Source of the DNA: Patescibacteria group bacterium
GTDB taxonomy: Bacteria; Patescibacteriota; Patescibacteriia; UM-FILTER-42-10
NCBI GenBank assembly: GCA_041666485.1
Contig: JBAYGW010000003.1
Coordinates: forward strand, 16,415-80,414
Reading direction: 5' to 3'
Length of the DNA: 64,000 nucleotides
The notes under the pieces were generated by a model. The model saw only the letters and a program-made list of their open reading frames with translations, did not search any database and was not told the origin of the DNA. Position numbers and translations under genes: made by a program. Shown here piece after piece: positions 6,671 through 56,923 of the stretch; position 1 is the stretch's first letter, and each line of letters opens with the position of its first letter.

Positions 6671-8161
6671 ATGATTGTTATTATGAAAAGACAATCCGGA
6701 ATATTATTACACATCACATCACTGCCCAGTCCGTATGGCATTGGTGATTTGGGAGAAGAAGCATTTAGATTTATTGATTTCTTAAGCAAGTCCGGACAGA
6801 GTATTTGGCAAATTCTTCCATTAACCATACCGGACTCTATCGGTTCACCATACGCGTCTTCATCTGCGTTTGCCGGAAACTGGCTACTAATTAGTCCTGA
6901 TGAATTATTAAAAGCCGGATTGCTGCACAAAAAGTCACTTCCCAAAACAAAGCGAGTCACAGCGATCAAATATTCAAAAGTATTCCAAGAGCGACGAAAA
7001 CTCGTTGAAAAATCATATGAGTATTTCCGCAAACATGCTTCACGTGAACAGAGTAACAGCTTTAATCATTTTATCCAATATCATTCAAAATGGCTCAACG
7101 ATTTCGGGCTGTTTATGGCGCTTAAAGATCACTTCAAGGGTGCGCGATGGTTTAATTGGCCTGAGGATATTGCCAACAGAGAAGAACAAGCCATCAAATA
7201 CTGGCAAAAAAAACTTGATCGCCAAATAAAAGTATATCAATACGGACAATGGATATTTTTTTCTCAGTATGCGAAAATTAAAAAATACGCGAATAAAAAA
7301 GGTATCCGCATTTTTGGCGATATTCCATTCTTTATTATTCACGACAGTGTAAATGTTTGGGTTGATCGGGATTTGTTTTTGCTGGACGATAAATACCAAC
7401 CCCTGGCCAAATCGGGTGTGCCACCGGATTATTTCAGCAAACGTGGACAGTTGTGGGGTGACCCGCAGTACAACTGGGAAAAAATGAAGAAAAATAATTT
7501 CCGTTGGTTTATCAGAAGAATAAAAAAAGCGGAAAACTTTTATGATGATGTTCGTTTAGACCATTTTAGAGGCTATTCAGCAGTATGGCATGTTGATCCA
7601 AAATCCAAAACATCTAAAAATGGCAAATGGGTCCCTGTACCCGGAATTGAAATCTTCAGAGAAGTAAAAAGCAAATTCAAAAATCTTTCTATCATTGCGG
7701 AAGATCTTGGATATATAACTCACGATGTAGTTGAATTGAAAAGGCATTATAAATTTCCGGGTATGCGCGTAATGCAGTTTGGTTTTAGTGGAAAACAGAA
7801 TAATTTTCATCTACCCACGAATTTTTCAACCGATTGCGTCGCTTATACCGGCACTCATGATAACGACACAACCTATGGCTGGATTACGAAATCCGGTAAA
7901 ACGTCGCAAAAGAAATTTGCGCTAAAATATGCGAAAACTGACAAAAAGCATTTTGCCTGGAAGCTTATTGAAATAGGTATGCGCTCAAGAGCCTGTTGGT
8001 TCGTCTTCCCTATTCAGGACGCTCTAAATCTCGGATCAGAGGCCCGCATGAACAAACCGTCAACCAAAAAGAAAAACTGGCAATGGCGTATGAAAAAAAA
8101 CGCATTATCGGACGAATTGGCAATTAAGATAAACAATCTTACCAGATCTGCCAGAAGATAA
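6671..8161 (+). CDS. malQ: 4-alpha-glucanotransferase (amylomaltase)
   Basis: 496-aa ORF; GILLHITSLPSPYGIGDLG N-terminus and the GDIPFF and DHFRG motifs of GH77. Confidence 0.9.
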   Translation: MIVIMKRQSGILLHITSLPSPYGIGDLGEEAFRFIDFLSKSGQSIWQILPLTIPDSIGSPYASSSAFAGNWLLISPDELLKAGLLHKKSLPKTKRVTAIKYSKVFQERRKLVEKSYEYFRKHASREQSNSFNHFIQYHSKWLNDFGLFMALKDHFKGARWFNWPEDIANREEQAIKYWQKKLDRQIKVYQYGQWIFFSQYAKIKKYANKKGIRIFGDIPFFIIHDSVNVWVDRDLFLLDDKYQPLAKSGVPPDYFSKRGQLWGDPQYNWEKMKKNNFRWFIRRIKKAENFYDDVRLDHFRGYSAVWHVDPKSKTSKNGKWVPVPGIEIFREVKSKFKNLSIIAEDLGYITHDVVELKRHYKFPGMRVMQFGFSGKQNNFHLPTNFSTDCVAYTGTHDNDTTYGWITKSGKTSQKKFALKYAKTDKKHFAWKLIEIGMRSRACWFVFPIQDALNLGSEARMNKPSTKKKNWQWRMKKNALSDELAIKINNLTRSARR

Positions 8162-8168
8162 TAATTCT

Positions 8169-8206
8169 AAAAACGTTCCGGCTTGAAATAAGCGCCGGGG
8201 CGTTTT
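8169..8206 (+). terminator. putative intrinsic terminator after malQ
   Basis: CCGGC...GCCGG hairpin followed by GCGTTTTT. Confidence 0.5.
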
Positions 8207-8321
8207 TGATTATTCCAGAATCAGATTTCCGACCATGCCCATTTGCCGGTGATTTTGTATACCGCAATAATATTCAAAAATTCCGGTTTTATCCGCTATA
8301 AACTCCACTTAATATTAATAA

Positions 8322-8516
8322 TTAGCCGACCTTTTCCCATGTGGCATCATCGGCAACTTCATCAATGTCTACTTTTTTCTGGGGAATCAGGCACGAAACA
8401 CATTCGGGAAATTTTTCGCCTTTTTCCAATTTTGACTTATAGCCGCACGGCATACATAAATATTCTCCCGTCTCCGGAGCTTTATCACCGGCGTAATAGT
8501 ACTTTTTAATAGGCAT
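8322..8516 (-). CDS. small zinc-ribbon / rubredoxin-like protein
   Basis: 64-aa ORF with CMPC...CVSC cysteine pairs. A strong AGGAGGAGG SD precedes the ATG. Confidence 0.5.
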   Translation of the reverse strand: MPIKKYYYAGDKAPETGEYLCMPCGYKSKLEKGEKFPECVSCLIPQKKVDIDEVADDATWEKVG

Positions 8517-8531
8517 ACCTCCTCCTAATTG

Positions 8532-9098
8532 TTAAGAAGTAATATTTTCTCTGCCCCATTTAAGGGTTTTTGTCATCCAGATTAATTCTGTTAAAAAAGT
8601 ATCAATTCTTACATCGTATGATTCATCTAAAACGTTACCATCATCGTCAAAAAGTGTATCAACCTTTGAGAAGTTCAAGTCAGTCTTAATCATTGATAAT
8701 TGCAGGGCCTTCATAACAGATGCCAAACTTTCAACTGCCCTTGCCCCGCCAAAACCACCGTCTGAAACACTGCATAAGCCCACCGATTTATGCCGGTATT
8801 CCGGTAACAGCATATCCAGGGCCATTTTTAAACTACCCGGGAAACTGTGATTATACTCGGGTGATACAATAATCAAACCGTCCGCTTTTTCTACTAATTC
8901 TTTAAAATCAGAATTTTTTTTACCCAGACCGCGCCCTTCATTACCCGCAAAATTTAATTTTTTTACATCAATGATTTGCGTTACAATCCCCGGTTTCTCC
9001 CTGACTCTTTTTTCCAAATATTTCGCGACTTTTTCACTTTCGCGTCCTTCTCTGGTTGTACCAAGAATAATCGGCAAATATAGAGCATCTTCTGACAT
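8532..9098 (-). CDS. NAD(P)H-dependent FMN reductase family oxidoreductase
   Basis: 188-aa flavodoxin-like ORF; LGTTREGR and SPEYNHSFPG motifs. Confidence 0.8.
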   Translation of the reverse strand: MSEDALYLPIILGTTREGRESEKVAKYLEKRVREKPGIVTQIIDVKKLNFAGNEGRGLGKKNSDFKELVEKADGLIIVSPEYNHSFPGSLKMALDMLLPEYRHKSVGLCSVSDGGFGGARAVESLASVMKALQLSMIKTDLNFSKVDTLFDDDGNVLDESYDVRIDTFLTELIWMTKTLKWGRENITS

Positions 9099-9115
9099 AT
9101 AATTATAATTAATTA

Positions 9116-9814
9116 TTAAATATATTGTTGTGGATCAATCCAATTATTCAGTTCTGCTTCTGTCTGGACATATCCTTTGATATTAATTTCAGTTCCTTTA
9201 TGTATCCCGAAATGCAGATGCTTTCTTTCCCCGTCTGTTTCCGCGCTTTTGTCCGCACCCAGTAACCCTATTATATCCCCTTTTTTGATATTTGATCCAA
9301 CTTCAAATTTTACACTAGCTATCATTAAATGACCGTAAATTACAGTAACTCTCTGACCATTCAAATCACATTCCTGGACAATCACTCCCCCATAACCGCT
9401 TGCGGTAGTTTTCATTCTAAGCGATCCGGTACAAAAAGACTTAACCTCCACATCACTGTTTAGTTCGTCAGCAAATACCTCAAAGTCAGCTCCGGTATGA
9501 TATCCGGAAAATCTCTCCGGCTGTACCGGCGAATTAGTCTTCGTTATTTTAATACCGAATGGTTTTTTTATAATTCTTTCTTTTGGTTGATCCAAAGGAC
9601 TCTGATAACCCTCATTACTTACCTGATTATTTAAATTTTGGTTTAAATCGGCATTTGCAATGTTTGTAATTTCGGAATTTACCAATACACTATTATTTAA
9701 AATTGTACTGTTACCAATGTTCTGGTTTTTCTTAATCTGTAAAAAAACAAACACACCAAAAAATATAAACATTATCAGCAAACCATAGAGAACCCTTTTG
9801 AATCCTTTACCCAT
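9116..9814 (-). CDS. M23 family metallopeptidase (membrane-anchored)
   Basis: N-terminal TM helix; HTGADF and HLHFGIH metal-binding motifs. Confidence 0.85.
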   Translation of the reverse strand: MGKGFKRVLYGLLIMFIFFGVFVFLQIKKNQNIGNSTILNNSVLVNSEITNIANADLNQNLNNQVSNEGYQSPLDQPKERIIKKPFGIKITKTNSPVQPERFSGYHTGADFEVFADELNSDVEVKSFCTGSLRMKTTASGYGGVIVQECDLNGQRVTVIYGHLMIASVKFEVGSNIKKGDIIGLLGADKSAETDGERKHLHFGIHKGTEINIKGYVQTEAELNNWIDPQQYI

Positions 9815-9841
9815 TATCTTCTTATTAATATATTATTAAGT

Positions 9842-9873
9842 AAAACTCCCACCAAATAAATGGAGGGAGTTTT
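9842..9873 (-). terminator. hairpin terminator downstream of the ArsR-family gene
   Basis: AAAACTCCC...GGGAGTTTT 9-bp inverted repeat flanked by A/T runs. Confidence 0.6.
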
Positions 9874-9956
9874 ATCAATTCGGTTAGCAACCGCAATCAG
9901 GACCTGATGTCATTTTATTTACCTTTCATGTTTGCCTGCTTAAAATACAGGCTTAA

Positions 9957-10307
9957 TTAATGAATATGTTGATCTAAATGATTATCCAGCATTTCAACCT
10001 GTTCTTTGTCACTGATCTCAAGCATATAGCAAACGCACTTGCCCATTTTATACTTAGTTACAATCCGGGAGCGCTCTAGCATACTTAGCTGGTGCGACAC
10101 TGCGCTGATACTGATACCGAGCACAGCAGCGATATCTGAAACACAGATCTCTTCATAATGTTTTAATAACAGCAATATTTTTATCCTGGTCGGATCAGAC
10201 AAAACATTGCATAGATCACTTTGGATTTTTATGTGTTTACCGTTTCTTTTCAGCCAATTCTGATTTTTTAATATTTGCTTTTGCGTTAACATACTACGTT
10301 TTATCAT
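9957..10307 (-). CDS. ArsR/SmtB family transcriptional regulator
   Basis: LSDPTRIKILLLL and CVSDIAAVLGISISAVSHQL wHTH motifs. Confidence 0.9.
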   Translation of the reverse strand: MIKRSMLTQKQILKNQNWLKRNGKHIKIQSDLCNVLSDPTRIKILLLLKHYEEICVSDIAAVLGISISAVSHQLSMLERSRIVTKYKMGKCVCYMLEISDKEQVEMLDNHLDQHIH

Positions 10308-10440
10308 TTGCTCAAGTGTCTTAATGATATAGCAATTTGTTACCGCCTGTCAAGTCGGGTCACAACTCCTCATAAAGCCAATCTTGACAATAACGTACTT
10401 TTGTATTACTTTCTTTGTATGTTGATCTTTGAAACAACGA

Positions 10441-10575
10441 TGTAGGTGGGAGGACCGCCGTACCAAAAAGCAAGCAGTAATGCTACCCGCTGGGTGACAT
10501 TGACTGACGGGATTCGTCTCGTCCGTGGGCAGATGTTGCCCTCTGGGATGCTAAAGTGCGCGTCCTCCCACCCCA
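10441..10575 (+). promoter_or_regulatory. structured G+C-rich leader RNA domain, class unknown
   Basis: An 11-bp perfect long-range helix (GGTGGGAGGAC 10445-10455 with GTCCTCCCACC 10562-10572) extends by 3 bp. It encloses an AGCA-GTAA-TGCT GNRA hairpin, a GACG-GATT-CGTC hairpin and a GGGCA-n5-TGCCC hairpin. Confidence 0.4.
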
Positions 10576-10760
10576 CTTTCTTCTACAAATTGCTTTGTGC
10601 GGACGCTTAAGTCCGTTTGTGATAGTCACCCCACAACCCGATCCTACAGGGAGGTACGCCAAATGTACTCGTGGAGTTACGCACGCCACGGGTTCGGTTG
10701 ACCTGCGATCTTCTCCGTCTGAGTAGTCAATGCCCACGACTCAAAATGAGGAGATCTCGC

Positions 10761-11126
10761 ATGTGCGACAAGACCCAATGGAACGCGGGGCACGTCCTCG
10801 TCGTCCAGACCGTGTTCCCGACCGACAGCGAATCCCCCGGCGGTTTCTCGCGCAGCGTCATGTTGTGCACCTGTGGGAGCTGCCTGAGCTCCAACAACCC
10901 GATGACGCCCGCAGGGCCCCTGCACAGCTACCTGAAACGGTGCTTTGAGCAGGACGCTGCTGATGCGGTGGCGGGGGGCCTTGAGCCGCCCGTCAACCTC
11001 CTGAGCATGCCGAAGCTTGACCCGCGCACCGGCGCCGAGAAGCCGACCAAGAAGCAGGCAGCCATGCTGATCAAGCAGATCGGTCCGGACGCCTTCGCTT
11101 CCGACATCGTCGCGGCCTACGCCTAG
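10761..11126 (+). CDS. hypothetical protein (121 aa) in a G+C-rich cassette
   Basis: ATG is preceded by GAGGAG at 7-nt spacing, codons are GC3-rich, and a strong terminator follows. No family recognised. Confidence 0.5.
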   Translation: MCDKTQWNAGHVLVVQTVFPTDSESPGGFSRSVMLCTCGSCLSSNNPMTPAGPLHSYLKRCFEQDAADAVAGGLEPPVNLLSMPKLDPRTGAEKPTKKQAAMLIKQIGPDAFASDIVAAYA

Positions 11127-11159
11127 CGTAGGAGAAGAAGTACATCGTTGAAGGACATC

Positions 11160-11190
11160 GGGCGAATCCACTGGATTCGCCCATTTTTTT
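11160..11190 (+). terminator. intrinsic terminator
   Basis: GGGCGAATCCA-C-TGGATTCGCCC perfect hairpin followed by ATTTTTTT. Confidence 0.85.
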
Positions 11191-11276
11191 ATTATGAATA
11201 TTGACAGAAGAAGTGGAATACAATACCATTGTTAACGCCCGCTGATTGTAAGACATCCTTCATGGAGGAGGTGGAC

Positions 11277-11573
11277 ATGTCCCAAAGTCGGCTGGTGATG
11301 TTCTTAATGCTCTTTCTCGGACTGACTCTCTCTCCCCTGTTTCTTGTCGTTGCGGCGGTTATGTTCCTTGCTCCCTCGGAGCCGAAGCTCATCCCCCGGG
11401 ATGATGAAGGGAGACGTTGCTGTCCCGTCTGCCACTCCAGACACTATCTCATCTTCCCGACTCGGCAGAAGAGCTACTTCGGCCATTCCTGGATTTCAGC
11501 ATTTTGCAGAAACCAAATGGAATACCGCTACCAGGACTGCACAATGAGCTGGAAAGAATCCGGGGACGGCTAA
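11277..11573 (+). CDS. hypothetical small Cys-rich membrane-anchored protein (98 aa) in a G+C-rich cassette
   Basis: GGAGGAGG SD 5 nt before the ATG, an N-terminal TM helix (LVMFLMLFLGLTLSPLFLVVAAVMFL), and a CCPVC plus further Cys residues. Confidence 0.5.
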   Translation: MSQSRLVMFLMLFLGLTLSPLFLVVAAVMFLAPSEPKLIPRDDEGRRCCPVCHSRHYLIFPTRQKSYFGHSWISAFCRNQMEYRYQDCTMSWKESGDG

Positions 11574-11576
11574 ACC

Positions 11577-11604
11577 GCGTTGATGTTCTATCAGCGCTTT
11601 TTTT
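11577..11604 (+). terminator. intrinsic terminator
   Basis: GCGTTGAT...ATCAGCGC hairpin (one G-T pair) followed by TTTTTTT. Confidence 0.6.
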
Positions 11605-11623
11605 ATATATTTATTTGACGTTA

Positions 11624-11959
11624 CTATCTGAAGATTTTAGACAGAAACCAGTTTACAATAGCCAGTACAATACCAAACAGCAATGCCCACCAAAAGCTTG
11701 CTATGGAAAATCCCGGAACAATTAACGCCATCAGCATAACCAATAATGCGTTAATCACCAGCGTAAACAAGCCAAGCGTCAGAATATTGATCGGCAGAGT
11801 AAAAATTACTAAAACAGGTTTGATAAATATATTAATCAGACCCAATACCAACGCCCCGACAAAAGCGACAAAAAAACCATCAACCGCTACGCCCGGTAGC
11901 AGATAGGCTGTGATCAGGATTGCGACCGTTGAAATTAGCCATTTAATAAGGATTTTCAT
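11624..11959 (-). CDS. phage holin family 4 / YvlD-like membrane protein
   Basis: 111-aa, 4-TM ORF; ITAYLLPGV and PINILTLGLFTLVINAL resemble the Phage_holin_4_2 family. Confidence 0.75.
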   Translation of the reverse strand: MKILIKWLISTVAILITAYLLPGVAVDGFFVAFVGALVLGLINIFIKPVLVIFTLPINILTLGLFTLVINALLVMLMALIVPGFSIASFWWALLFGIVLAIVNWFLSKIFR

Positions 11960-22907: not shown

Positions 22908-24497
22908 CTAGTGCCAGAACATCCGGCGATCGGTAAAGAGCATCGCGATGCCCAGTTTGTCCGCGGACCTGATTGAATCCTGGTCGCGAATTGAACCGCC
23001 CTGCTGGACGATCGTCTTGACGCCGAACGTGTCCGCCAGGCGCACGCAGTCGTCAAACGGGAAGAAGCTGTCGGACACCAGCACAGCATGGTGCAGATCC
23101 ATATTCTGCGCCTCCATGTTGTTCATGGCCTGCTCCAGAGCAAGCCGTGCCGACTTGATCCGGCTGGTCTGGCCGTTGCCGATGCCGATCGTCTGCCCGT
23201 TCCAGACCACGATGACCGAGTTGGACTTGACGTGCTTTGACACATTGCAGCCGAAACTGATATCCGACCAGTAGCGGTCCTTGACACCGAGCTTGGTGAC
23301 GCACCGGAACGACCTGCAGTCAAACAGCTCGGTGTCCATCAGCTGGACCACCATGCCGCCGGTCACCGGCTTGAAGTTCAGCGTGCCGAACGGCATGCTG
23401 CAGGAAAGCTCCCCACCCAGTTTGAACAGCGGGGTCTCTGCCCTGGCGCGCTTCTTGGTGATGTGTTCCATCGCCTCCGGCGAAAAATCCAGCGCGACGA
23501 TCGCGTCCACCTTCTGCACGCAGATGGTTTCAGCGACTTCCTCCGTCACCTGGAAGTTGAGTACCACCACCCCGCCGAAAGCCGATTCCGGATCGCACGC
23601 CAGTGCGTTCTGGAAAGCCTTCAGCGGACTGAAGCTGTCCATCGCCACTCCGCACGGCGTACCATGCTTGATGATCGCGACTGCGAATTCCGGGGACAGG
23701 TCGCGGACCGTCTCAATGCCGGCATTGATATCCAGCACAGTGGTGGCCGAGAGCGGCTTGCCCCAGATCTGCTTGGCGTTTGCCGCGGTGTAGCAGTTCA
23801 GACCCGGCAGTTCGTAGAACGCACCCGGCTGATGCGGATTCTCACCGTAGCGCAGATCACACTTCTTCTGCAGACGCTGAACCATCCGATCCGGGAAGCT
23901 GGGGAACTCAAGGCGTTCAGCCAGCCAGTCGGAGATCGTGGCGTCATACCACGCAGTGTGAAGAAACGCCTTGTAAGCCAGTTGCAGACGTTCCAGCGCG
24001 TTGAACCCGACATCTTCCGAAAGACACCGAATCACAAAGCCGTACTGCTCTGGTGAAGTGACCACCAGCACATGGCTGTGATTCTTCGCGGCCGCGCGGA
24101 TCAGTGCCACGCCGCCGATATCAATCTGCTCAATCGCGTCCCGAAATGCCACGGTCCGATCAGCCACCGTCTCTTCAAACGGATACAGGTTGACCACGAC
24201 CATGTCAAACGGGTAGATGCTGTGATCAAACAGCTCCTGCATGTGCGCGTCGCTGTCCTGATCCGCCAGGATCCCGCCGTGGATCTTCGGATGCAGAGTC
24301 TTCACCCTGCCACCCAGAATTTCCGGGAAACCGGTCACCTCCTCTACCGTTCGCACGGGAATTCCGGCTTCCACCAGGTGTCTGGACGTTCCGCCGGAAG
24401 ATACAATCTCCCAGCCATGTTCAAACAGCACGGTGGCAAGCTCAACAATGCCGCGCTTGTCGGACACGCTGATCAGAGCGCGCTGATTTGCTCGCAT
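22908..24497 (-). CDS. purH: bifunctional AICAR transformylase / IMP cyclohydrolase
   Basis: ALISVSDK, GGRVKTLHPKIHGGIL, GENPHQ and QQGGSIRD motifs. Start set at MRANQ, preceded by AAAGGAGC. Strongly G+C-rich relative to its flanks. Confidence 0.93.
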   Translation of the reverse strand: MRANQRALISVSDKRGIVELATVLFEHGWEIVSSGGTSRHLVEAGIPVRTVEEVTGFPEILGGRVKTLHPKIHGGILADQDSDAHMQELFDHSIYPFDMVVVNLYPFEETVADRTVAFRDAIEQIDIGGVALIRAAAKNHSHVLVVTSPEQYGFVIRCLSEDVGFNALERLQLAYKAFLHTAWYDATISDWLAERLEFPSFPDRMVQRLQKKCDLRYGENPHQPGAFYELPGLNCYTAANAKQIWGKPLSATTVLDINAGIETVRDLSPEFAVAIIKHGTPCGVAMDSFSPLKAFQNALACDPESAFGGVVVLNFQVTEEVAETICVQKVDAIVALDFSPEAMEHITKKRARAETPLFKLGGELSCSMPFGTLNFKPVTGGMVVQLMDTELFDCRSFRCVTKLGVKDRYWSDISFGCNVSKHVKSNSVIVVWNGQTIGIGNGQTSRIKSARLALEQAMNNMEAQNMDLHHAVLVSDSFFPFDDCVRLADTFGVKTIVQQGGSIRDQDSIRSADKLGIAMLFTDRRMFWH

Positions 24498-24563
24498 TTC
24501 TGCTCCTTTCGTGGCAAACCGTGAAGCTTTCACCGCAAACAACCGTTTGGGAAACGGTTTTTT

Positions 24564-26537: not shown

Positions 26538-27527
26538 ATGAATCTGGATAAGATCTATACAATACTGGCAGACCAGCCGAAATACCGGATAGAACAGGCT
26601 AACGAAGCCATTTTTAAACTACTCATAAACAATTGGGATGGGGCGACAAACTTCCCGAAGGAAATCAGAGAAAAACTGAACCGAGAGTGCCCGCTGGAAA
26701 TAAAAGGTGAACTTTTTGCCTCCAAAGACAATAAAACCAGCAAAGCGCTGATTACACTGGAAGACGGCCAGCAGATTGAAACTGTTCTACTGATTCACAA
26801 AGACGGTCGGCATACAGTATGTGTTTCCACTCAAGCCGGTTGTCCGATGGGGTGCACTTTCTGTGCCACCGGAAAGCTAGGACTCAAAAGAAATCTGAAG
26901 GCGGAAGAAATATTGGCACAGGTACTTTTTTTCTCCAGGATTTTGAAACCGAAGAATGAACGCGTGTCCAACGTAGTTTTCATGGGTATGGGCGAACCGT
27001 TCCTGAATTATGACAATACACTTTCGGCAATCAACTATTTGAATAAAGACTTAGGTATCGGTGCCCGCCGTATCTCCATATCCACCTGCGGAGTAATCCC
27101 GGGGATAGAAAAATTAGCAAAAGAAAAATTACAGCTAAACCTTGCCGTATCGTTGCACGCGCCCAATCAGGAACTGCGTAATAAACTGATGCCGGTCAGC
27201 AAGCATGTTGCTTTAGAAAAACTGCTTTCAGCCGTGGACGACTATATTGCCAAAACCGGCAGACGGGTTATGTTTGAATATTTGATGATCAAGGGTGTAA
27301 ATGATAAAATTGAGTACGCAAAGCAACTGGCCGTGCTGATGGATAAACCTCTTCACATGGTAAACCTGATCGCCTACAACCCTACGGACGTTTTCAAACC
27401 TTCGGACCGGAAAACAATAGAAGCATTCAAAGAAGTTTTGGAAAAAGCGGGTGTTACCGTTACCCAGCGCTACAGTTTCGGTCAGGATATCAACGCTGCC
27501 TGTGGACAGTTGGCTAATAAAAAGTAA
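26538..27527 (+). CDS. rlmN: 23S rRNA/tRNA (adenine-C2)-methyltransferase, radical SAM
   Basis: CPMGCTFCATG radical-SAM cluster and GMGEPFLNY motifs. Confidence 0.93.
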   Translation: MNLDKIYTILADQPKYRIEQANEAIFKLLINNWDGATNFPKEIREKLNRECPLEIKGELFASKDNKTSKALITLEDGQQIETVLLIHKDGRHTVCVSTQAGCPMGCTFCATGKLGLKRNLKAEEILAQVLFFSRILKPKNERVSNVVFMGMGEPFLNYDNTLSAINYLNKDLGIGARRISISTCGVIPGIEKLAKEKLQLNLAVSLHAPNQELRNKLMPVSKHVALEKLLSAVDDYIAKTGRRVMFEYLMIKGVNDKIEYAKQLAVLMDKPLHMVNLIAYNPTDVFKPSDRKTIEAFKEVLEKAGVTVTQRYSFGQDINAACGQLANKK

Positions 27528-27645
27528 CTCAAGAGAATGATTAATATCTTGAATAAATATTTATTCACATGACTAATTCCATATTTTGTCTAAATTGGGT
27601 AAAATGTAACTATTGGAAAATATATATAATTAATTATCTAATAAA

Positions 27646-28602
27646 ATGATTAAAGAACCAACTCCAGGATTGGAGCAATCAAGAGAATTAATAGAAGAAC
27701 AAGGCCACAACACCAGTGTTCATTTTACATTTGTCCGTCATTCGCAGAAATCATCAGGTCAAGTTTTTGCAGAAGGTGGCAAGGGAATATCGCGATCAAG
27801 TATTTCCGAAGGAGGAAGACAGCGGGCAGAAGTTTATGGACGAGATCAAATGTCCAGTCGAAGAATAAATAAAGCTTATGCTACTAAAGTAGATAGAACA
27901 AAAGAAACATTAAATTATGCTTTTCAGGCAGCAGAAATAAATCCAGATATTCTACAAAAATCAGATAGCTCACAATCTTTCTTCTCACTGCCCGCTTTAT
28001 CGGGCAGTACAGAATTTAATAGACGTTATGATGCTATTATGCTTCCCGAAAGACAAAAATTTATTGACGGGCATTATCCGGGGAGGCAATTTAGTGAACT
28101 GACGCCAGATGAGCAAGAGGTAGCCGCAGAATACGCCGAGGAACCGGCCCTAGAATGGTATCTTTCATATAATAATGAACGACCCGATGAAGAAACACCA
28201 AGCCCGCGTGAACAGGCCGCCTCTGTTGCCTTCAAACTAAATCGACTCGTTAATTTAACGGATTTCATGCCAAATGGCAAAGAATTGGACCTTGTCAGTT
28301 CAGGACATAAAACATCTACTGAAGCATTGCTAAAATATATTATAGAACGACAAGAAAATGGCGAAGTAGTAGTGGGATTTGAAAGCTTGGAACAAATAGG
28401 TGGAAGTTTAAAGATTCTAGATAGCTGGGATTTATATGTTCAAAATGATGAAGGTGGAGAAAAGCATATCATGATGGTGTTGAGACGGGAAAATGGTGAA
28501 ACGCAGGAATATGGACTAAACAGTTCTATTCTAAATGAATTGGCAAAAGAATACATTGAGGCCAGCAGTTTGAAGCCTAAGAAAATAGACTCATTACAAT
28601 AA
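27646..28602 (+). CDS. histidine phosphatase (PGAM-like) superfamily protein, divergent
   Basis: FVRHSQK (RHG-type motif), a downstream VDRTKETL and a SSGHKTS second-His region, with a long insert. Confidence 0.5.
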   Translation: MIKEPTPGLEQSRELIEEQGHNTSVHFTFVRHSQKSSGQVFAEGGKGISRSSISEGGRQRAEVYGRDQMSSRRINKAYATKVDRTKETLNYAFQAAEINPDILQKSDSSQSFFSLPALSGSTEFNRRYDAIMLPERQKFIDGHYPGRQFSELTPDEQEVAAEYAEEPALEWYLSYNNERPDEETPSPREQAASVAFKLNRLVNLTDFMPNGKELDLVSSGHKTSTEALLKYIIERQENGEVVVGFESLEQIGGSLKILDSWDLYVQNDEGGEKHIMMVLRRENGETQEYGLNSSILNELAKEYIEASSLKPKKIDSLQ

Positions 28603-28606
28603 AGCT

Positions 28607-28936
28607 ATGGCAAAAATATTACTTACCGGCATAGGCGCCAGCCCAGGATATGTAGAAGGCACTGCACGACTATTTCATTCTGGCGATGAACTATTATCAT
28701 TTCATGATGGTGATATTTTAGTAACTATAATAACCGATCCAACCATGGTGACCGCGATGGTAAAAGCATCGGCAATAATTACAGATATCGGTGGTATTAC
28801 ATCCCACCCCGCAATCCTGAGTCGTGAAATGGGTATACCTTGTATTGTTAATACGAAGGAGGCAACAAAGATAATAAGAGATGGCATGCATATTAGTGTT
28901 GATGGTCAAAAAGGAGAAATTTATGTCCTGGATTAA
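28607..28936 (+). CDS. stand-alone PEP-utilising enzyme mobile (swivel phosphohistidine) domain protein
   Basis: 109-aa ORF; GGITSHPAILSREMGIPCIV is the PEP-utilizers phosphohistidine signature. Confidence 0.8.
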   Translation: MAKILLTGIGASPGYVEGTARLFHSGDELLSFHDGDILVTIITDPTMVTAMVKASAIITDIGGITSHPAILSREMGIPCIVNTKEATKIIRDGMHISVDGQKGEIYVLD

Positions 28937-29990
28937 TGAGTTTACAAAATCAGCATCAAGTTTGTTTAAAGGTCAGATACTAGCAGGTTTCCAACCGCTT
29001 GATTTTAGTCACTTTCTTCCACTTTGGTATGCTCTATGGATTACTAATATTGCGCATACAATTAAAATACTGGACTTAGAATCAAAACATTTTGATGAAA
29101 TCAATGAAATACTTCCACCACCTTCCAACATGAGGGCAATTCTGGTAAAACTTATTCCCGCTTATTATGCTAATCCCACAAAAAATAAGAAGGATTACAA
29201 CATAGTAGCAAATTTTTTTGCGCGAATGCTTAAAGAATGCTGCCCAAATGATCCATTTGCTCTTAAATCAAATACCATTCATACAAGCACGGAAATTATT
29301 TCCCTTGTATCCAATATAAACTGGAATAATGCCGATATTCAAAGTGCGCGAAAAGTTGGCCAACTTATCACTGCAACCGGGTCACTTGTTCATGGTTTAT
29401 ATAACGACCTTGTAACGGATCTCGGCTGGGAAGTATATGGTCCATATATTTCAACAATAAAGCAAACATTACTAATACGTCTTTTCCCCAATCTCCAACC
29501 AAAAGAGCTATGGCCAGAAAAGTATTTAGCCAGCATGAAAGAAATTACTATCTATGCCACTTATGAAGATGTTGAATGGAATATTTCTTTTGTTGGCTGT
29601 CATACAATTTCTAATGGAAAAAGCCCAGTTGAAGGCATGACAAAATACGCAATTTACGGGGATGGAAAAAAATTAAATCTAATCAATACAGAAAATCTTA
29701 TTGATGAATTATCAAAGAAAGCAACAGATATTTATAGCAACATAAATAGTATGTCCTCTGAGAACCTTAAATTATTGGTTATGAGGCAAGAATGCTATCA
29801 ACTTAAATTATTGTTTGATGAAGCGGGAATCGATTGGCAGCCGACCGCTGAAATGATAGAAGTAGTTAAAAGCAAGCAAATTTTGCATGGAGTATTTCCG
29901 CGTGATAAATTTATTGAATCAACAGAGGAATTTAAGAAAATATTTGGCATTGATGTTTTTGAAAAAGAAATTCTGAATATTTTAAATTAA
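28923..29990 (+). CDS. hypothetical protein (355 aa), translationally coupled to the swivel-domain gene
   Basis: AAAGGAG SD; the ATG at 28923 overlaps the upstream stop by 14 nt. No family recognised. Confidence 0.55.
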   Translation: MSWINEFTKSASSLFKGQILAGFQPLDFSHFLPLWYALWITNIAHTIKILDLESKHFDEINEILPPPSNMRAILVKLIPAYYANPTKNKKDYNIVANFFARMLKECCPNDPFALKSNTIHTSTEIISLVSNINWNNADIQSARKVGQLITATGSLVHGLYNDLVTDLGWEVYGPYISTIKQTLLIRLFPNLQPKELWPEKYLASMKEITIYATYEDVEWNISFVGCHTISNGKSPVEGMTKYAIYGDGKKLNLINTENLIDELSKKATDIYSNINSMSSENLKLLVMRQECYQLKLLFDEAGIDWQPTAEMIEVVKSKQILHGVFPRDKFIESTEEFKKIFGIDVFEKEILNILN

Positions 29991-30001
29991 TTTATAAACA
30001 T

Positions 30002-30427
30002 ATGACCAAAGCACAAATCAAGGGACATCAAGTTGTTTGTTCCGCGTTTATAGAAAGAAATAAAAGGTTTTTGATTGTCATGGATCCCAAATTCAAAGTT
30101 TGGCGGGTTCCCGGAGGCAGACCGGAGCACGGTGAAAAGCTTGAAGATACTTTGATACGAGAAATGCAGGAAGAAACAGGTATAACATTTTCCGACCCCA
30201 AATTCATCGGCTTTGGCCAGGATCAGCAGTTTAAAGTGGATGATAAACTGGAAACATCGCGTTTGATTATGTATTTTCATGTGCATACCGACCAGGAACC
30301 GGTGCTTGACCCGAACGAAGCAGAACAGCACAAATGGGTTACGCTTGACGAACTCAAGGAAATAGATTTAGATAACAAGGAAGGGGCGCTTACCGATTTT
30401 TTTAATCGTAATCCGAATTTTAAATAA
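30002..30427 (+). CDS. NUDIX hydrolase
   Basis: Nudix box GGRPEHGEKLEDTLIREMQEETG. Confidence 0.9.
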   Translation: MTKAQIKGHQVVCSAFIERNKRFLIVMDPKFKVWRVPGGRPEHGEKLEDTLIREMQEETGITFSDPKFIGFGQDQQFKVDDKLETSRLIMYFHVHTDQEPVLDPNEAEQHKWVTLDELKEIDLDNKEGALTDFFNRNPNFK

Positions 30428-30434
30428 AACATTT

Positions 30435-30812
30435 ATGAATGAAAATGTCATAGTCAAAGAGTCAAGTATCAATAATAAAGGCGTTTTTGCCACACGCGAT
30501 TTTAAAAAGGGTGAAGTAGTGCTCCCCTGGCAGACAAATACTATCCTAACCATGGAAGAAGTTAAAAAATTGCCGGCATCAGAAAGAAACTATATCGCCA
30601 ACTATGCGGGGGGTAAATATCTGCATCAACAAGAGCCGGAAAGATATGTTAACCACTCCTGCGATCCGAATACAGAAACTGGTGATGATTGTGACGTAGC
30701 GATCAGAGATATTAAATCTGGTGAAGAAATTACTTCCGATTATTCCAAGGCAAAGTTTAATATGCACTTTGTATGCAACTGCGGGAGTAAAAATTGCCGC
30801 AAGTATATTTAA
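30435..30812 (+). CDS. SET domain-containing protein (putative lysine methyltransferase)
   Basis: NHSCDPN and EEITSDY motifs plus a C-terminal Cys cluster (post-SET-like). Confidence 0.85.
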   Translation: MNENVIVKESSINNKGVFATRDFKKGEVVLPWQTNTILTMEEVKKLPASERNYIANYAGGKYLHQQEPERYVNHSCDPNTETGDDCDVAIRDIKSGEEITSDYSKAKFNMHFVCNCGSKNCRKYI

Positions 30813-30838
30813 GTATATATACTTTAAATGATTGAATC

Positions 30839-31297
30839 ATGTCGGATCAACGAAAAGTAATCCCGGGAGTACATCTCATTTTCCAAAAATATAATAATGA
30901 CATCGGCGAGAACGAGTATCTGCTCCACAAGCGCATGAATACCAACTTTTTTGACAAACACTTTTCCGTTCCCGGCGGGCATATTGATGATTATGAAACC
31001 CCTACCGACTGCGTGGTACGCGAAGGAAAAGAAGAACTTGGTGTGGATATTGATCCAAAATACATAAAATTTGCTAATGTACTTTACAGGATTAAAAAAT
31101 CCGATCATGAAGTGCGCATTGACTTTTGCTACATCATTACCAAATGGAAAGGCATATTGAAGGCCAATGAACAGCATAAACACTCTGAGCCGGCCTGGTA
31201 TCCACTCAGCAAATTCCCTACACCCGTAGTTCCTTATGTATTGCAGGCAATACAAGATATTGAAAGTGGAATTGCATACACAAAGACAGATATTTAG
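30839..31297 (+). CDS. NUDIX hydrolase
   Basis: Nudix box PGGHIDDYETPTDCVVREGKEELG. Confidence 0.85.
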   Translation: MSDQRKVIPGVHLIFQKYNNDIGENEYLLHKRMNTNFFDKHFSVPGGHIDDYETPTDCVVREGKEELGVDIDPKYIKFANVLYRIKKSDHEVRIDFCYIITKWKGILKANEQHKHSEPAWYPLSKFPTPVVPYVLQAIQDIESGIAYTKTDI

Positions 31298-31351
31298 TGG
31301 GGAATAAGAATCATAATAATAACCTGGGTGCAAGAATTTAATTCAATATAA

Positions 31352-31789
31352 ATGTTTACAATCGGAACATTCGGCATAATCAAAGATGAAAATGAACGGG
31401 TATTACTCTGTCACCGCCGGGATTATGATTTTTGGAATCTGCCTGGAGGCGGAGTAAAAGAAAATGAAACTCCCTGGGACGCTGTAATTCGGGAAATAAG
31501 GGAAGAAACGGGACTGGAAGCTCGGATCACTCACCTCTCGGGCGTGTACAGCAAGCCGGATAAAAATGAAATTGTGTTTTCTTTTGTTTGCGAAATAGCG
31601 GGCGGGGAAACTACTTTAACTGACGAGGCGGACAAAATAGCATATTTTGAAGTTGACCAGATTCCTAAAAATACTTCCCCGAAACAAGTGGAACGGATCA
31701 AAGATTATTTTGCTGATCCATCCAAAACCCACTACAAGGCGCAAACCGGCGCGTCATCAATTGATCTGATCAAAGCGGGAAGACTTTAA
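31352..31789 (+). CDS. NUDIX hydrolase
   Basis: Nudix box PGGGVKENETPWDAVIREIREETGL. Confidence 0.9.
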   Translation: MFTIGTFGIIKDENERVLLCHRRDYDFWNLPGGGVKENETPWDAVIREIREETGLEARITHLSGVYSKPDKNEIVFSFVCEIAGGETTLTDEADKIAYFEVDQIPKNTSPKQVERIKDYFADPSKTHYKAQTGASSIDLIKAGRL

Positions 31790-55653: not shown

Positions 55654-55810
55654 ACCGTCTTATTGTACCAAATATCAATGTTTCTGGCGACTTGTCATTA
55701 CAGTCACGTAGCAACCCTGACTTGCCAGAGTAAATGAAATATGGTAAAAACAAAACTGTGCCCATCTTCAGGGCGCAAATGACCAAAACCCGTTTTTGGG
55801 AGGTATTGGT

Positions 55811-56923
55811 ATGGACCAACGATTTGTCGATCTGGCGAGAGTCATGGTCGGCCATTCCACAAGGGTCTCAAAGGACGATATCGTCATCGTCAAGAGCACG
55901 GAGGTAGTGCCGCCCGACATGATCTTCGCGGTGATCCAGACCGTGCGCGAAGCGGGGGGCTCCGTGATCCCCTGGCGCTACGATCCGCGCATTGACTTCG
56001 AGGCATTCAGGGGTGGCACCGCTCACCAGCTGCGTGCCTGGGGCGCCGGCCAGTTTACCCAACTGGCTGCCGCCAACTGCTTCATTGAGTTCCGGCCGTT
56101 CAGTAACCAGCTCGACGGCAACGACGTGCCGGCAGCGGACATGCAGCGCCACGGCGAGGTGTTCGTTCCGCTGACGGTTGAACAGCGCGTGGAACGCACC
56201 CGCTGGGTGCTGACCCGCTGGCCGACGCCGGCCAACGCCCAGTTGGCCGGGATGTCCACGACGCAGTTCGAAGAGTTCTTCTTCAAGGCATGCCTCGCCG
56301 ACTACGGCGCCATGGCCAAGGCCGTGAAGCCGCTCGTCGCCCTGATGGAGCGGACCGACCAGGTCCAGATCCAAGGGCCGGGCGACACCGATCTCACTTT
56401 CAGCATCAAGGGAATTCCGATCATCGCCTGTACCGGATCGCACAACATCCCCGACGGCGAAGTGTTCACGGCGCCGGTTCGCGATTCCATGAACGGCGTG
56501 ATCGCCTACAACACCCCCACGGTCAACTCCCGCGGCCAGCGGTTCACCAATCTCCGCTTCGTGGTCAAGGCGGGCAAGATCGTGGAGGCGACCTGCGAGA
56601 CGGGTGACCAGACGGCGCTGGACGCCTTCCTGGACACCGACGAGGGTGCCCGCTACTTCGGCGAATTCGCCCTCGGCATCAACAACTTCGTCACGGGTGT
56701 GATCGGCGAAACGCTGTTCGACGAGAAGGTCGGTGGAAGCCTCCACTTGACGCCCGGCCGGTGCTATGAGCAAGCGCCGAACGGGAACCAGTCGGCCAAC
56801 CACTGGGACATCGTCTGCGATCAGCGCGGGGCTTCCGGTGGTGGGGAGATCTACTTCGACGGCAAGCTGGTCCGCAGCAAAGGGCTTTTCATCCCGAAGA
56901 GCCTCCACGCGCTCAATCCCTGA
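55811..56923 (+). CDS. M29 family aminopeptidase (AmpS/PepS-like)
   Basis: 370-aa ORF; NIPDGEVFTAP and HWDIV motifs of thermophilic metalloprotease M29. GGGAGG SD. Strongly G+C-rich. Confidence 0.82.
   Translation: MDQRFVDLARVMVGHSTRVSKDDIVIVKSTEVVPPDMIFAVIQTVREAGGSVIPWRYDPRIDFEAFRGGTAHQLRAWGAGQFTQLAAANCFIEFRPFSNQLDGNDVPAADMQRHGEVFVPLTVEQRVERTRWVLTRWPTPANAQLAGMSTTQFEEFFFKACLADYGAMAKAVKPLVALMERTDQVQIQGPGDTDLTFSIKGIPIIACTGSHNIPDGEVFTAPVRDSMNGVIAYNTPTVNSRGQRFTNLRFVVKAGKIVEATCETGDQTALDAFLDTDEGARYFGEFALGINNFVTGVIGETLFDEKVGGSLHLTPGRCYEQAPNGNQSANHWDIVCDQRGASGGGEIYFDGKLVRSKGLFIPKSLHALNP

Follow-up and report, generated by a model that had tools for sequence, protein, structure and literature searches.

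Dikinases that work through a swivel histidine make up a small, well-studied class, in which only a few types of substrate site are known. In PEP synthase and PPDK, three functions are combined in one chain. HpeHI, PpsAB (phenylphosphate synthase), and CreHI are established examples of split dikinases: the swivel shuttles between the ATP-grasp and a separate substrate site, and the ATP-grasp can be a polypeptide of its own that is bound only transiently (PMC12167813). Rifampin phosphotransferase is a single-chain relative of these three and is also swivel based. The swivel of HpeHI, PpsAB, and CreHI is fused to an RPH-like substrate-binding domain, and we know of no phosphatase subunit described for them. 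A further carrier chain, the phosphotransferase system (PTS; Enzyme I, HPr, EIIA/B), passes phosphate along histidines and cysteines, starting from a PF00391 swivel. Phosphocarriers can also be acted on by phosphohistidine phosphatases, with SixA acting on NPr, ArcB-HPt, and Ndk (PMC7948535, PMC6282199).

The three adjacent genes considered here, A, B, and C, lie in a 64-kb window of Patescibacteria DNA, the window being the whole stretch that was analyzed. On balance, we consider the operon to be best explained as a split dikinase-type phosphotransferase, in which C would be the subunit with a new acceptor site, A a phosphatase subunit devoted to the system, and the ATP-grasp a partner supplied in trans. 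It resembles HpeHI, PpsAB, and CreHI in having a swivel, but here the swivel is a free 109-aa protein, its partner C resembles the RPH domain neither in sequence nor in fold, and the window contains no ATP-grasp gene. Compared with PEP synthase and PPDK, the operon lacks both the PF02896 TIM barrel and the ATP-grasp domain PPDK_N, so that among the features of the dikinase class the swivel was found, and PPDK_N and a known second substrate site were not. With the PTS it shares the multiprotein carrier chain, but it has no PEP-binding domain, HPr, or EII components. Literature searches turned up no case of a free swivel protein coupled to a histidine phosphatase, and the A-B-C version of the proposed phosphotransferase has so far been found only in Patescibacteria.

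Locus layout and the free-standing swivel protein

All three genes were confirmed as open reading frames on the forward strand, totaling 782 aa: gene A (27646–28602; 318 aa), a capped histidine-phosphatase-superfamily protein; gene B (28607–28936; 109 aa), a free-standing PEP-utilizer mobile (swivel) phosphohistidine domain; and gene C (28923–29990; 355 aa), the founding-type member of an unannotated family and the obligate partner of the swivel domain. The first-pass annotation had described a 4-nt gap between A and B, a 14-nt overlap between B and C, and an AAAGGAG Shine-Dalgarno sequence for the downstream gene, and each of these held on the sequence. The ribosome-binding site of C (28910–28916, forward strand) lies inside the 3′ end of B, 6 nt before the ATG at 28923, and the start and stop codons of B and C overlap, as in translational coupling. 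A longer frame from the ATG at 28881 would give a C protein of 369 aa, but the start at 28923 (MSWINEF...) is favored because most of 41 homologs begin at the MSW position. A promoter and terminator scan of 27300–30500 gave nothing better than shuffled sequence.

Gene B encodes one complete PF00391 domain and no other (E = 1.3e-25; 89.2 bits, with a Pfam gathering score of 23.1), with residues 33–103 aligning to profile positions 2–72 of 72, so its earlier description as a mobile phosphohistidine domain only can be retained. The protein carries GGITSHPAILSREMGIPCIV, and its presumed phospho-accepting residue is His67 (codon CAC, 28805–28807, forward strand), in the T65-S66-H67 triplet within GGITSH. 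In NCBIfam, it matches the swivel segment of PEP synthase best (positions 355–461 of 798; E = 5.8e-35), compared with E = 3.7e-12 against PTS Enzyme I models. The T-S-H motif of PEP synthase is kept, including the Thr that serves as a regulatory phosphorylation site in PEP synthase and PPDK (PMC12167813). Among the three proteins, only the B swivel matched PHROGs, in a "kinase" family, and none of the three could be assigned to the phage protein families there. Similarly, none belonged to a known anti-phage defense system in PADLOC, which returned nothing for B or C and a weak match of A to UzuA (E = 0.0082).

Gene coupling and an orphan partner family

Conserved gene neighborhoods across Patescibacteria support functional coupling of A, B, and C. 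In each of the 24 species-level loci for which upstream DNA is available, C is immediately preceded by a histidine-bearing swivel gene or forms one chain with it. Several independent clusters are B+C fusions of about 426–490 aa, and second, tandem B-C′ modules occur in L008/L024 and L026. A or another phosphatase is next to the B-C pair in most loci; in some, the gene order varies (B-A-C or B-C-A), with the genes staying together. Since the arrangement recurs across the phylum, it is not due to chance. Among the loci retrieved, no swivel gene that adjoins C or is fused to it has lost the histidine. Loss of synteny elsewhere, or of the swivel histidine in homologs, had been named in the first-pass annotation as grounds for abandoning the module, and neither was observed.

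Several other features of these neighborhoods are noted here as observations. A gene for a divergent TrmB-type regulator lies upstream in eight species-level loci, and also in L001 and L038. A short "RRH" neighbor family (232–245 aa) occurs in L001 and in 8 of 26 species-level loci; tested as a histidine phosphatase, it gave an hhalign probability of 0.7% against the A profile and matched no Pfam or NCBIfam model, so it is not demonstrably a phosphatase and is left unassigned. Single-chain paralogs (P0220, P0230) are ordered as an N-terminal domain without an assigned identity, the swivel, and C′. The N-terminal domain, of about 330 aa before swivel-C′ or C′, has no relative in PDB or NCBIfam, and comparison showed that it is not A-like.

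Gene C had been described as belonging to no recognizable family, and our searches agree. No match was found in Pfam, NCBIfam, PADLOC, PHROGs, or PDB sequences, either with the single protein or with a 42-sequence profile. The predicted structure, although modeled confidently, had no structural match in the PDB. C matched neither the PEP/pyruvate TIM barrel (PF02896) nor the RPH-like substrate-binding domain, by sequence or by fold. We found no ligand, nucleotide motif, or structural analog linking C to any chemistry, no DNA-binding, membrane, or output domain, and no match to any known function of the unrelated kind that would have spoken against the module. The family comprises 392 clusters, and its identified members all come from Patescibacteria assemblies or unlabeled metagenome contigs.

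C has a polar set of residues that is conserved across 122 superfamily domains: R71, D110, D162, Y175, Y214, H227, E280, and K283. The core motif H157-G-L-Y-N-D162 (29391–29408, forward strand) contains D162, which is kept in 115 of the 122 domains. The Cys226-His227 pair (codons TGT CAT, 29598–29603, forward strand) is invariant in the orthologous group; across the superfamily, His227 is kept in 94 of 122 domains (77%), and Cys226 in only 39.

The putative phosphatase subunit and the proposed ATP-grasp partner

By its fold and its kept catalytic residues, A is a genuine histidine phosphatase, as the first-pass annotation had recognized in calling the upstream neighbor of B a divergent histidine-phosphatase-fold protein. 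It has the alpha/beta fold of the superfamily plus a helical cap or insertion of about 100 residues. In an alignment of 36 sequences, R31, H32, R84, and H221 are invariant, a catalytic core that includes the second Arg and the second His; the RH(S/G) motif with Arg31-His32, His being the nucleophile of this motif in the superfamily, is encoded by CGT CAT (27736–27741, forward strand). The window copy scores 14.2 bits against the Pfam His_Phos_1 model, under the gathering score of 21.7, but relatives do pass: 12 of 54 family clusters have a precomputed PF00300 match, and the copy in L039 scores 24.0 bits. The earlier "PGAM-like" label should be dropped, since A neither matches a phosphoglycerate mutase model nor shows its closest structural similarity to dPGM. 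Assignment to SixA was also rejected, as there was no TIGR00249 match and A, with 318 aa and a helical insertion, is twice as long as the SixA domain, which is small (about 160 aa) and uncapped. In structural comparison, the large cap places A nearer to small-molecule acid phosphatases than to the uncapped protein phosphatase SixA.

Genes of the A family are not confined to loci with C. They adjoin PPDK_N-X-swivel genes in L042–44, which are dikinases without C, and they adjoin X+swivel and PPDK_N genes in L035 and L036. A is therefore a generic partner of swivel dikinases, including those that lack C. Within the B-C loci, its place is taken in L018 by a SixA-like His_Phos_1 protein (SixA is its best match, below threshold) and in L038 by a Metallophos protein, and no phosphatase lies beside B-C in L010, L011, L015, and L021. 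Replacement or absence at some loci, together with occurrence beside dikinases without C, suggests that A acts as a hydrolase, and a role as a phosphate relay is improbable.

Neither tblastn nor phmmer of all ORFs found a PPDK_N (PF01326) in the 64-kb window, and the 10 kb that follow on the right contain none either. PPDK_N lies within 10 kb in only 2 of 26 species-level loci; two more, L007 and L039, were found by separate searches. In L013, a stand-alone PPDK_N starts 3 nt after C, recalling the separate ATP-grasp polypeptide of HpeHI, PpsAB, and CreHI, and in L018, PPDK_N is 2 kb downstream. In L007, PPDK_N begins at the stop codon of C, and the neighbor matches RPH and PEP-synthase models. 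In P0150/L039, C is fused to PPDK_N, within an operon ordered A-like, swivel, C::PPDK_N, although this fusion is one single cluster on a 4.8-kb contig and so could be read-through. Stand-alone PPDK_N proteins (~312 aa) are common: the best 120 clusters are all 304–333 aa and 64–87% identical, and the few named ones among these 120 are from Patescibacteria or Parcubacteria.

With PPDK_N near or fused to C in four relatives, the system is best regarded as a split dikinase for which the window does not encode the ATP-binding part, and C would act alongside the ATP-grasp, not as its substitute. The first-pass proposal of a multisubunit phosphotransfer or kinase system with unrecognized partner domains thus stands as to coupling and the orphan status of C, but not fully as to its partners, since PPDK_N is recognizable in these four relatives.

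Proposed mechanism, competing explanations, and significance

The chemistry that we infer from these features, including the direction of transfer and the substrate, would run as follows. B would be a carrier protein in its own right that takes up phosphate at His67. The charging site would be the ATP-grasp PPDK_N, found right after or fused to C in some relatives; with no copy in the window, it would have to work in trans here. Phospho-B would then dock on C, a new fold that would form the second active site, and the phosphate would pass to an acceptor. A, a capped histidine phosphatase dedicated to swivel systems, would act as a hydrolase, either discharging the phospho-swivel in a SixA-like reset or dephosphorylating the substrate or product. 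Several observations weigh against this reading: PPDK_N is missing from the window and from the surroundings of most B-C loci, the C::PPDK_N fusion could be read-through, nothing ties C to a chemistry, four loci have no phosphatase beside B-C, the "RRH" neighbors are not demonstrably phosphatases, and A with its large cap is more like small-molecule acid phosphatases than like SixA. A more specific version, in which C is a new-fold catalytic domain representing a third kind of swivel acceptor site besides the PEP/pyruvate TIM barrel and the RPH-type domain, in a Patescibacteria-specific four-part dikinase with a substrate new to the class, is one that we put forward tentatively.

An alternative, which we regard as unlikely, is a self-contained His-to-His relay without any ATP-grasp, running from a metabolite phosphate through His32 of A and His67 of B and ending at an acceptor on C, or the other way round. 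Such a transphosphorylase or mutase-like system comes close to the earlier notion of a "split phosphohistidine module." It would fit with the lack of PPDK_N in the window, in the 10 kb beyond, and beside most B-C loci, and with the covalent phospho-His intermediate that histidine-phosphatase enzymes form. The order of domains in P0220 and P0230 (N-domain, swivel, C′) is also consistent with it, since A would then sit where a second catalytic domain is expected. However, A is missing from four B-C loci, and in L038 its substitute is a metallophosphatase, which to our knowledge forms no phospho-His. A-family genes also occur next to complete dikinases, in which an ATP-grasp donor is already present, and stand-alone PPDK_N is abundant among related sequences.

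C could instead be a target or effector, phosphorylated by phospho-B (for example, on His227 or Cys226, in the manner of PTS carriers) or regulated by its binding, with A resetting a regulatory phosphorelay. The invariance of Cys226-His227 in the orthologous group and the retention of His227 in 77% of the superfamily agree with this, as do the upstream TrmB-type regulators (eight species-level loci, L001, and L038) and the precedent of SixA-type phosphatases that reset phosphocarrier proteins (PMC7948535, PMC6282199). We nevertheless consider it improbable. Cys226 is not conserved in paralogs (39 of 122), the most conserved residues (R71, D110, D162, Y175, and K283) resemble a binding or catalytic pocket and not a single acceptor residue, C contains no DNA-binding, membrane, or output domain, and its direct fusion to an ATP-grasp is an arrangement typical of enzymes.

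It is also doubtful that the system works in reverse for energy conservation, modeled on PEP synthase or PPDK in the glycolytic direction. Here, C and an energy-rich phosphometabolite would generate phospho-B, and the ATP-grasp would make ATP from AMP and phosphate. Dikinase reactions are reversible, as established for PPDK, and stand-alone PPDK_N is highly conserved among related sequences. This reading is also in line with the persistence of PEP-synthase-like genes in the extremely reduced genomes of DPANN archaeal symbionts, where the direction is unexplained (bioRxiv 10.64898/2026.05.13.725050). Against it, a co-encoded phosphatase would waste the donor, and C bears no relation to the PEP/pyruvate TIM barrel. 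Finally, that the genes are mere neighbors with unrelated functions, the swivel ORF being a remnant of a decayed PEP synthase gene, is very improbable: reduced genomes do carry gene remnants and the window copy of A falls below the Pfam threshold, but the synteny and fusion data already contradict it, with B intact, highly conserved, always paired with C over many lineages, and naturally fused to it, with invariant residues kept in all three families, and with overlapping start and stop codons as in translational coupling.

Read as a split dikinase, the module adds a free-standing swivel carrier to its class, as well as an obligate partner domain without relatives in the searched domain and structure libraries and a recurrent phosphatase subunit. 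Because the system is small and soluble, with 782 aa in three proteins, the hypothesis is directly testable in vitro. Patescibacteria have very small genomes with few recognizable metabolic enzymes, so a conserved multigene phosphotransfer system likely matters for their lifestyle. The module may also account for part of the "PEP synthase" signal, so far puzzling, in symbionts with reduced genomes. If the four-part version holds, many genes annotated as "PEP synthase" in ultra-small symbionts would be pieces of systems of this kind, and these may have a central place in salvage or energy metabolism.

Gene layout and the coupling of B with C

The three open reading frames of the operon were re-found exactly as the first-pass annotation had placed them. 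On the forward strand, A, the gene for a capped histidine-phosphatase-fold protein (318 aa), occupies 27646–28602; B, the gene for a free-standing PEP-utiliser swivel domain (109 aa), starts 4 nt past the A stop at 28607–28936; and C (355 aa), at 28923–29990, shares 14 nt with the end of B and has AAAGGAG ahead of it (28910–28916). An alternative in-frame ATG at 28881 would give a C protein of 369 aa, but most C homologues begin at the MSW position, making 28923 the likelier start. An exact protein match carries the locus tag WCT33_01245 in an NCBI Patescibacteria MAG.

Directly upstream, beyond an AT-rich 118-nt spacer, lies an RlmN-like radical SAM gene (26538–27527, +), whose adjacency to B–C is not conserved at other loci. 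Immediately 3' of C, NUDIX, SET-domain, NUDIX, and NUDIX genes follow on the same strand (30002–31789, gaps of 7–54 nt), and their co-transcription with C is possible. A near-identical SET protein also adjoins B–C at locus L010, and none of these genes is conserved beside B–C in the remaining loci, so a function shared with the operon is not supported. Elsewhere in the window, a GC-rich island at 10450–11600 (up to 0.66 in 200-nt windows, against approximately 0.39 for the genome) contained only overlapping ORFs of odd composition on both strands and matched nothing in Rfam, whether at gathering or at relaxed thresholds. Two 2-kb stretches, holding a purH-type gene with AICARFT/IMPCHase and MGS domains (22908–24542, −) and a peptidase M29 gene (55796–56923, +), were 0.51–0.52 GC, well above the remaining window, and these genes may be horizontal acquisitions.

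B is a single complete PF00391 swivel domain (E=1.3e-25) with no other domain, which bears out the earlier proposal that it comprises the mobile phosphohistidine domain only. Its nearest relative is the swivel segment of PEP synthase, and its T65-S66-H67 motif is intact (His67 codon CAC, 28805–28807). This histidine, whose loss in homologues would have counted against a phosphotransfer role, is retained in every swivel gene directly before or fused to C. We also note a swivel-like ORF adjoining a stand-alone PPDK_N (PF01326, the dikinase ATP-grasp domain) at L018 (14198–14596), in which proline replaces the catalytic histidine (GGVTSPIAT); judged from its sequence, this copy is presumably inactive.

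A scan of species-representative genomes gave 26 loci with C, hosted by Uhrbacteria, Magasanikbacteria, Doudnabacteria, Daviesbacteria, and unclassified Patescibacteria MAGs; some records are labelled Gracilibacteria, Saccharibacteria, or Gammaproteobacteria. The pairing of B with C is obligate: a swivel gene directly precedes C, or is fused to it, in 24 out of 24 loci having upstream DNA, so the synteny on which the earlier proposal depended holds for these two genes. Natural B+C fusions (~426–490 aa) occur in several clusters, and tandem C–C proteins exist. Paralogous C-type domains (C'), each with its own swivel, were found at L008/L024 and L026, and single chains (P0220 and P0230) join an unknown N-domain, a swivel, and C'. 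Close relatives of C form 89 clusters, all of ~355 aa, with every named one from Patescibacteria, within a family of 392 clusters (profile search, 1.84 billion representatives). Across 122 superfamily domains, R71, D110, D162, G173-P-Y175, W197, Y214, E280, K283, Y292, and W305-x-P307 are conserved and H227 is kept in 77%, while H157 and C226 are fixed in the orthologous group only. C had no fold match in the PDB.

A phosphatase companion of swivel dikinases

The first-pass annotation called A a PGAM-like histidine phosphatase, of which the superfamily stands and the PGAM label is too specific. A scored under the Pfam threshold for His_Phos_1, yet it belongs to this superfamily, since R31, H32, R84, and H221 are invariant in its family (54 clusters) and the family profile matches phosphoglycerate-mutase-family chains in the PDB. 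Because of a ~100-residue helical insertion between R84 and H221, A resembles capped acid phosphatases and phytases most closely in structure.

An A-type gene adjoins B–C in 11 of 26 species-level loci, in variable order (A-B-C; B-A-C in L032; B-C-A in L019). Other phosphatases can replace it: the L018 protein in its place is a bona fide His_Phos_1 member (top NCBIfam match SixA, below threshold), and at L038 a metallophosphatase (PF00149, 30.8 bits) takes A's position, with a swivel gene and then an N-domain-swivel-C' gene after it. A short "RRH" protein, for which we found no fold assignment, occurs in 8 of the 26 loci and in the separately fetched L001, and four of the 26 have no phosphatase beside B–C. 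A-family genes also lie 3 nt past a 767-aa PPDK_N-X-swivel dikinase (L042–44; X denotes the intervening segment) and beside split X+swivel and PPDK_N genes (L035, L036). The A family is therefore not tied to C and is a general companion of swivel dikinases. This companionship, together with substitution by other phosphatases, argues that the selected activity is hydrolysis of a target common to these systems.

ATP-grasp subunits at related loci

PPDK_N was not found in the window or in the 10 kb past its right end, and it does accompany C elsewhere. The complete Moraniibacteriota genome of L007 carries an ORF of 1521 aa (7077–11642) that begins at the C stop codon and encodes an N-terminal PPDK_N followed, twice over, by an unknown segment and then a swivel; the deposited listing has only the last 578 aa as a gene, so the ORF may be mis-called or interrupted in that annotation. 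A stand-alone 312-aa PPDK_N starts 3 nt past C in L013, PPDK_N lies 2 kb downstream in L018, and the L039 operon encodes an A-like protein, a swivel, and a C::PPDK_N fusion (one cluster, on a short contig). The best 120 clusters for the L013 PPDK_N query were all 304–333 aa and 64–87% identical, with the few names being Patescibacteria or Parcubacteria.

Stand-alone PPDK_N proteins of ~312 aa are very common. Their neighbours, or those of fused forms, are often a swivel-containing protein and a phosphatase, either A-like (L035, L036, L042) or a HAD hydrolase (L037). Many "pyruvate, water dikinase" annotations among stand-alone loci are probably parts of split systems without known function.

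Proposed mechanism and alternatives

We favour, with moderate confidence, a split dikinase-type phosphotransferase in which C is the acceptor-site subunit, the ATP-grasp acts in trans, and A is the phosphatase subunit. What the data show directly is which domains and folds these proteins have, that A and B keep their catalytic residues and C a set of polar ones, and that the genes are coupled, shuffled, and fused; the chemical steps are what we infer. His67 of B would be charged by an ATP-grasp subunit, in trans in this genome, and phospho-B would dock on C, the putative acceptor site for the substrate. A might then hydrolyse either the phosphorylated swivel, a SixA-like reset favoured by its association with systems of differing substrate domains, or phosphate on the substrate or product, as its acid-phosphatase-like cap would favour. 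SixA is a precedent for a histidine-phosphatase-fold enzyme discharging phosphohistidine carriers (PMC7948535, PMC6282199, PMC12934123), although A did not match SixA models. Divergent TrmB-type regulator genes upstream (eight species-level loci, L001, and L038) and a xylose-isomerase-like TIM-barrel gene abutting the L001 fusion give a weak hint of a carbohydrate-related substrate.

A self-contained relay from His to His, in which A is the donor station, agrees with the absence of PPDK_N from the window, but it sits poorly with the presence of A beside complete dikinases and with the substitution of a metallophosphatase for A, and we consider it unlikely. Less likely still, C could be a phospho-acceptor or regulatory protein, as Cys226-His227 might suggest; the broader pattern of conservation disfavours this, as does the fusion to ATP-grasp. 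Reverse operation, making ATP, is similarly doubtful as a candidate reading. Chance adjacency of A, B, and C is scarcely credible.

Among known systems, the two-component dikinases HpeHI, PpsAB, and CreHI come closest, together with rifampin phosphotransferase; they work by swivel logic too, and their ATP-grasp is separable (PMC12167813). In these systems the swivel and an RPH-like substrate domain share one chain, whereas B is free-standing, and no phosphatase subunit is described (PMC12167813), in contrast to A here. PEP synthase and PPDK also share swivel and ATP-grasp, but their second site is a TIM barrel. A-B-C is a real, conserved module, found to date only in Patescibacteria, and what is new is a dikinase-type system with a recurrent phosphatase and with an unannotated partner domain that matches no fold in the PDB.
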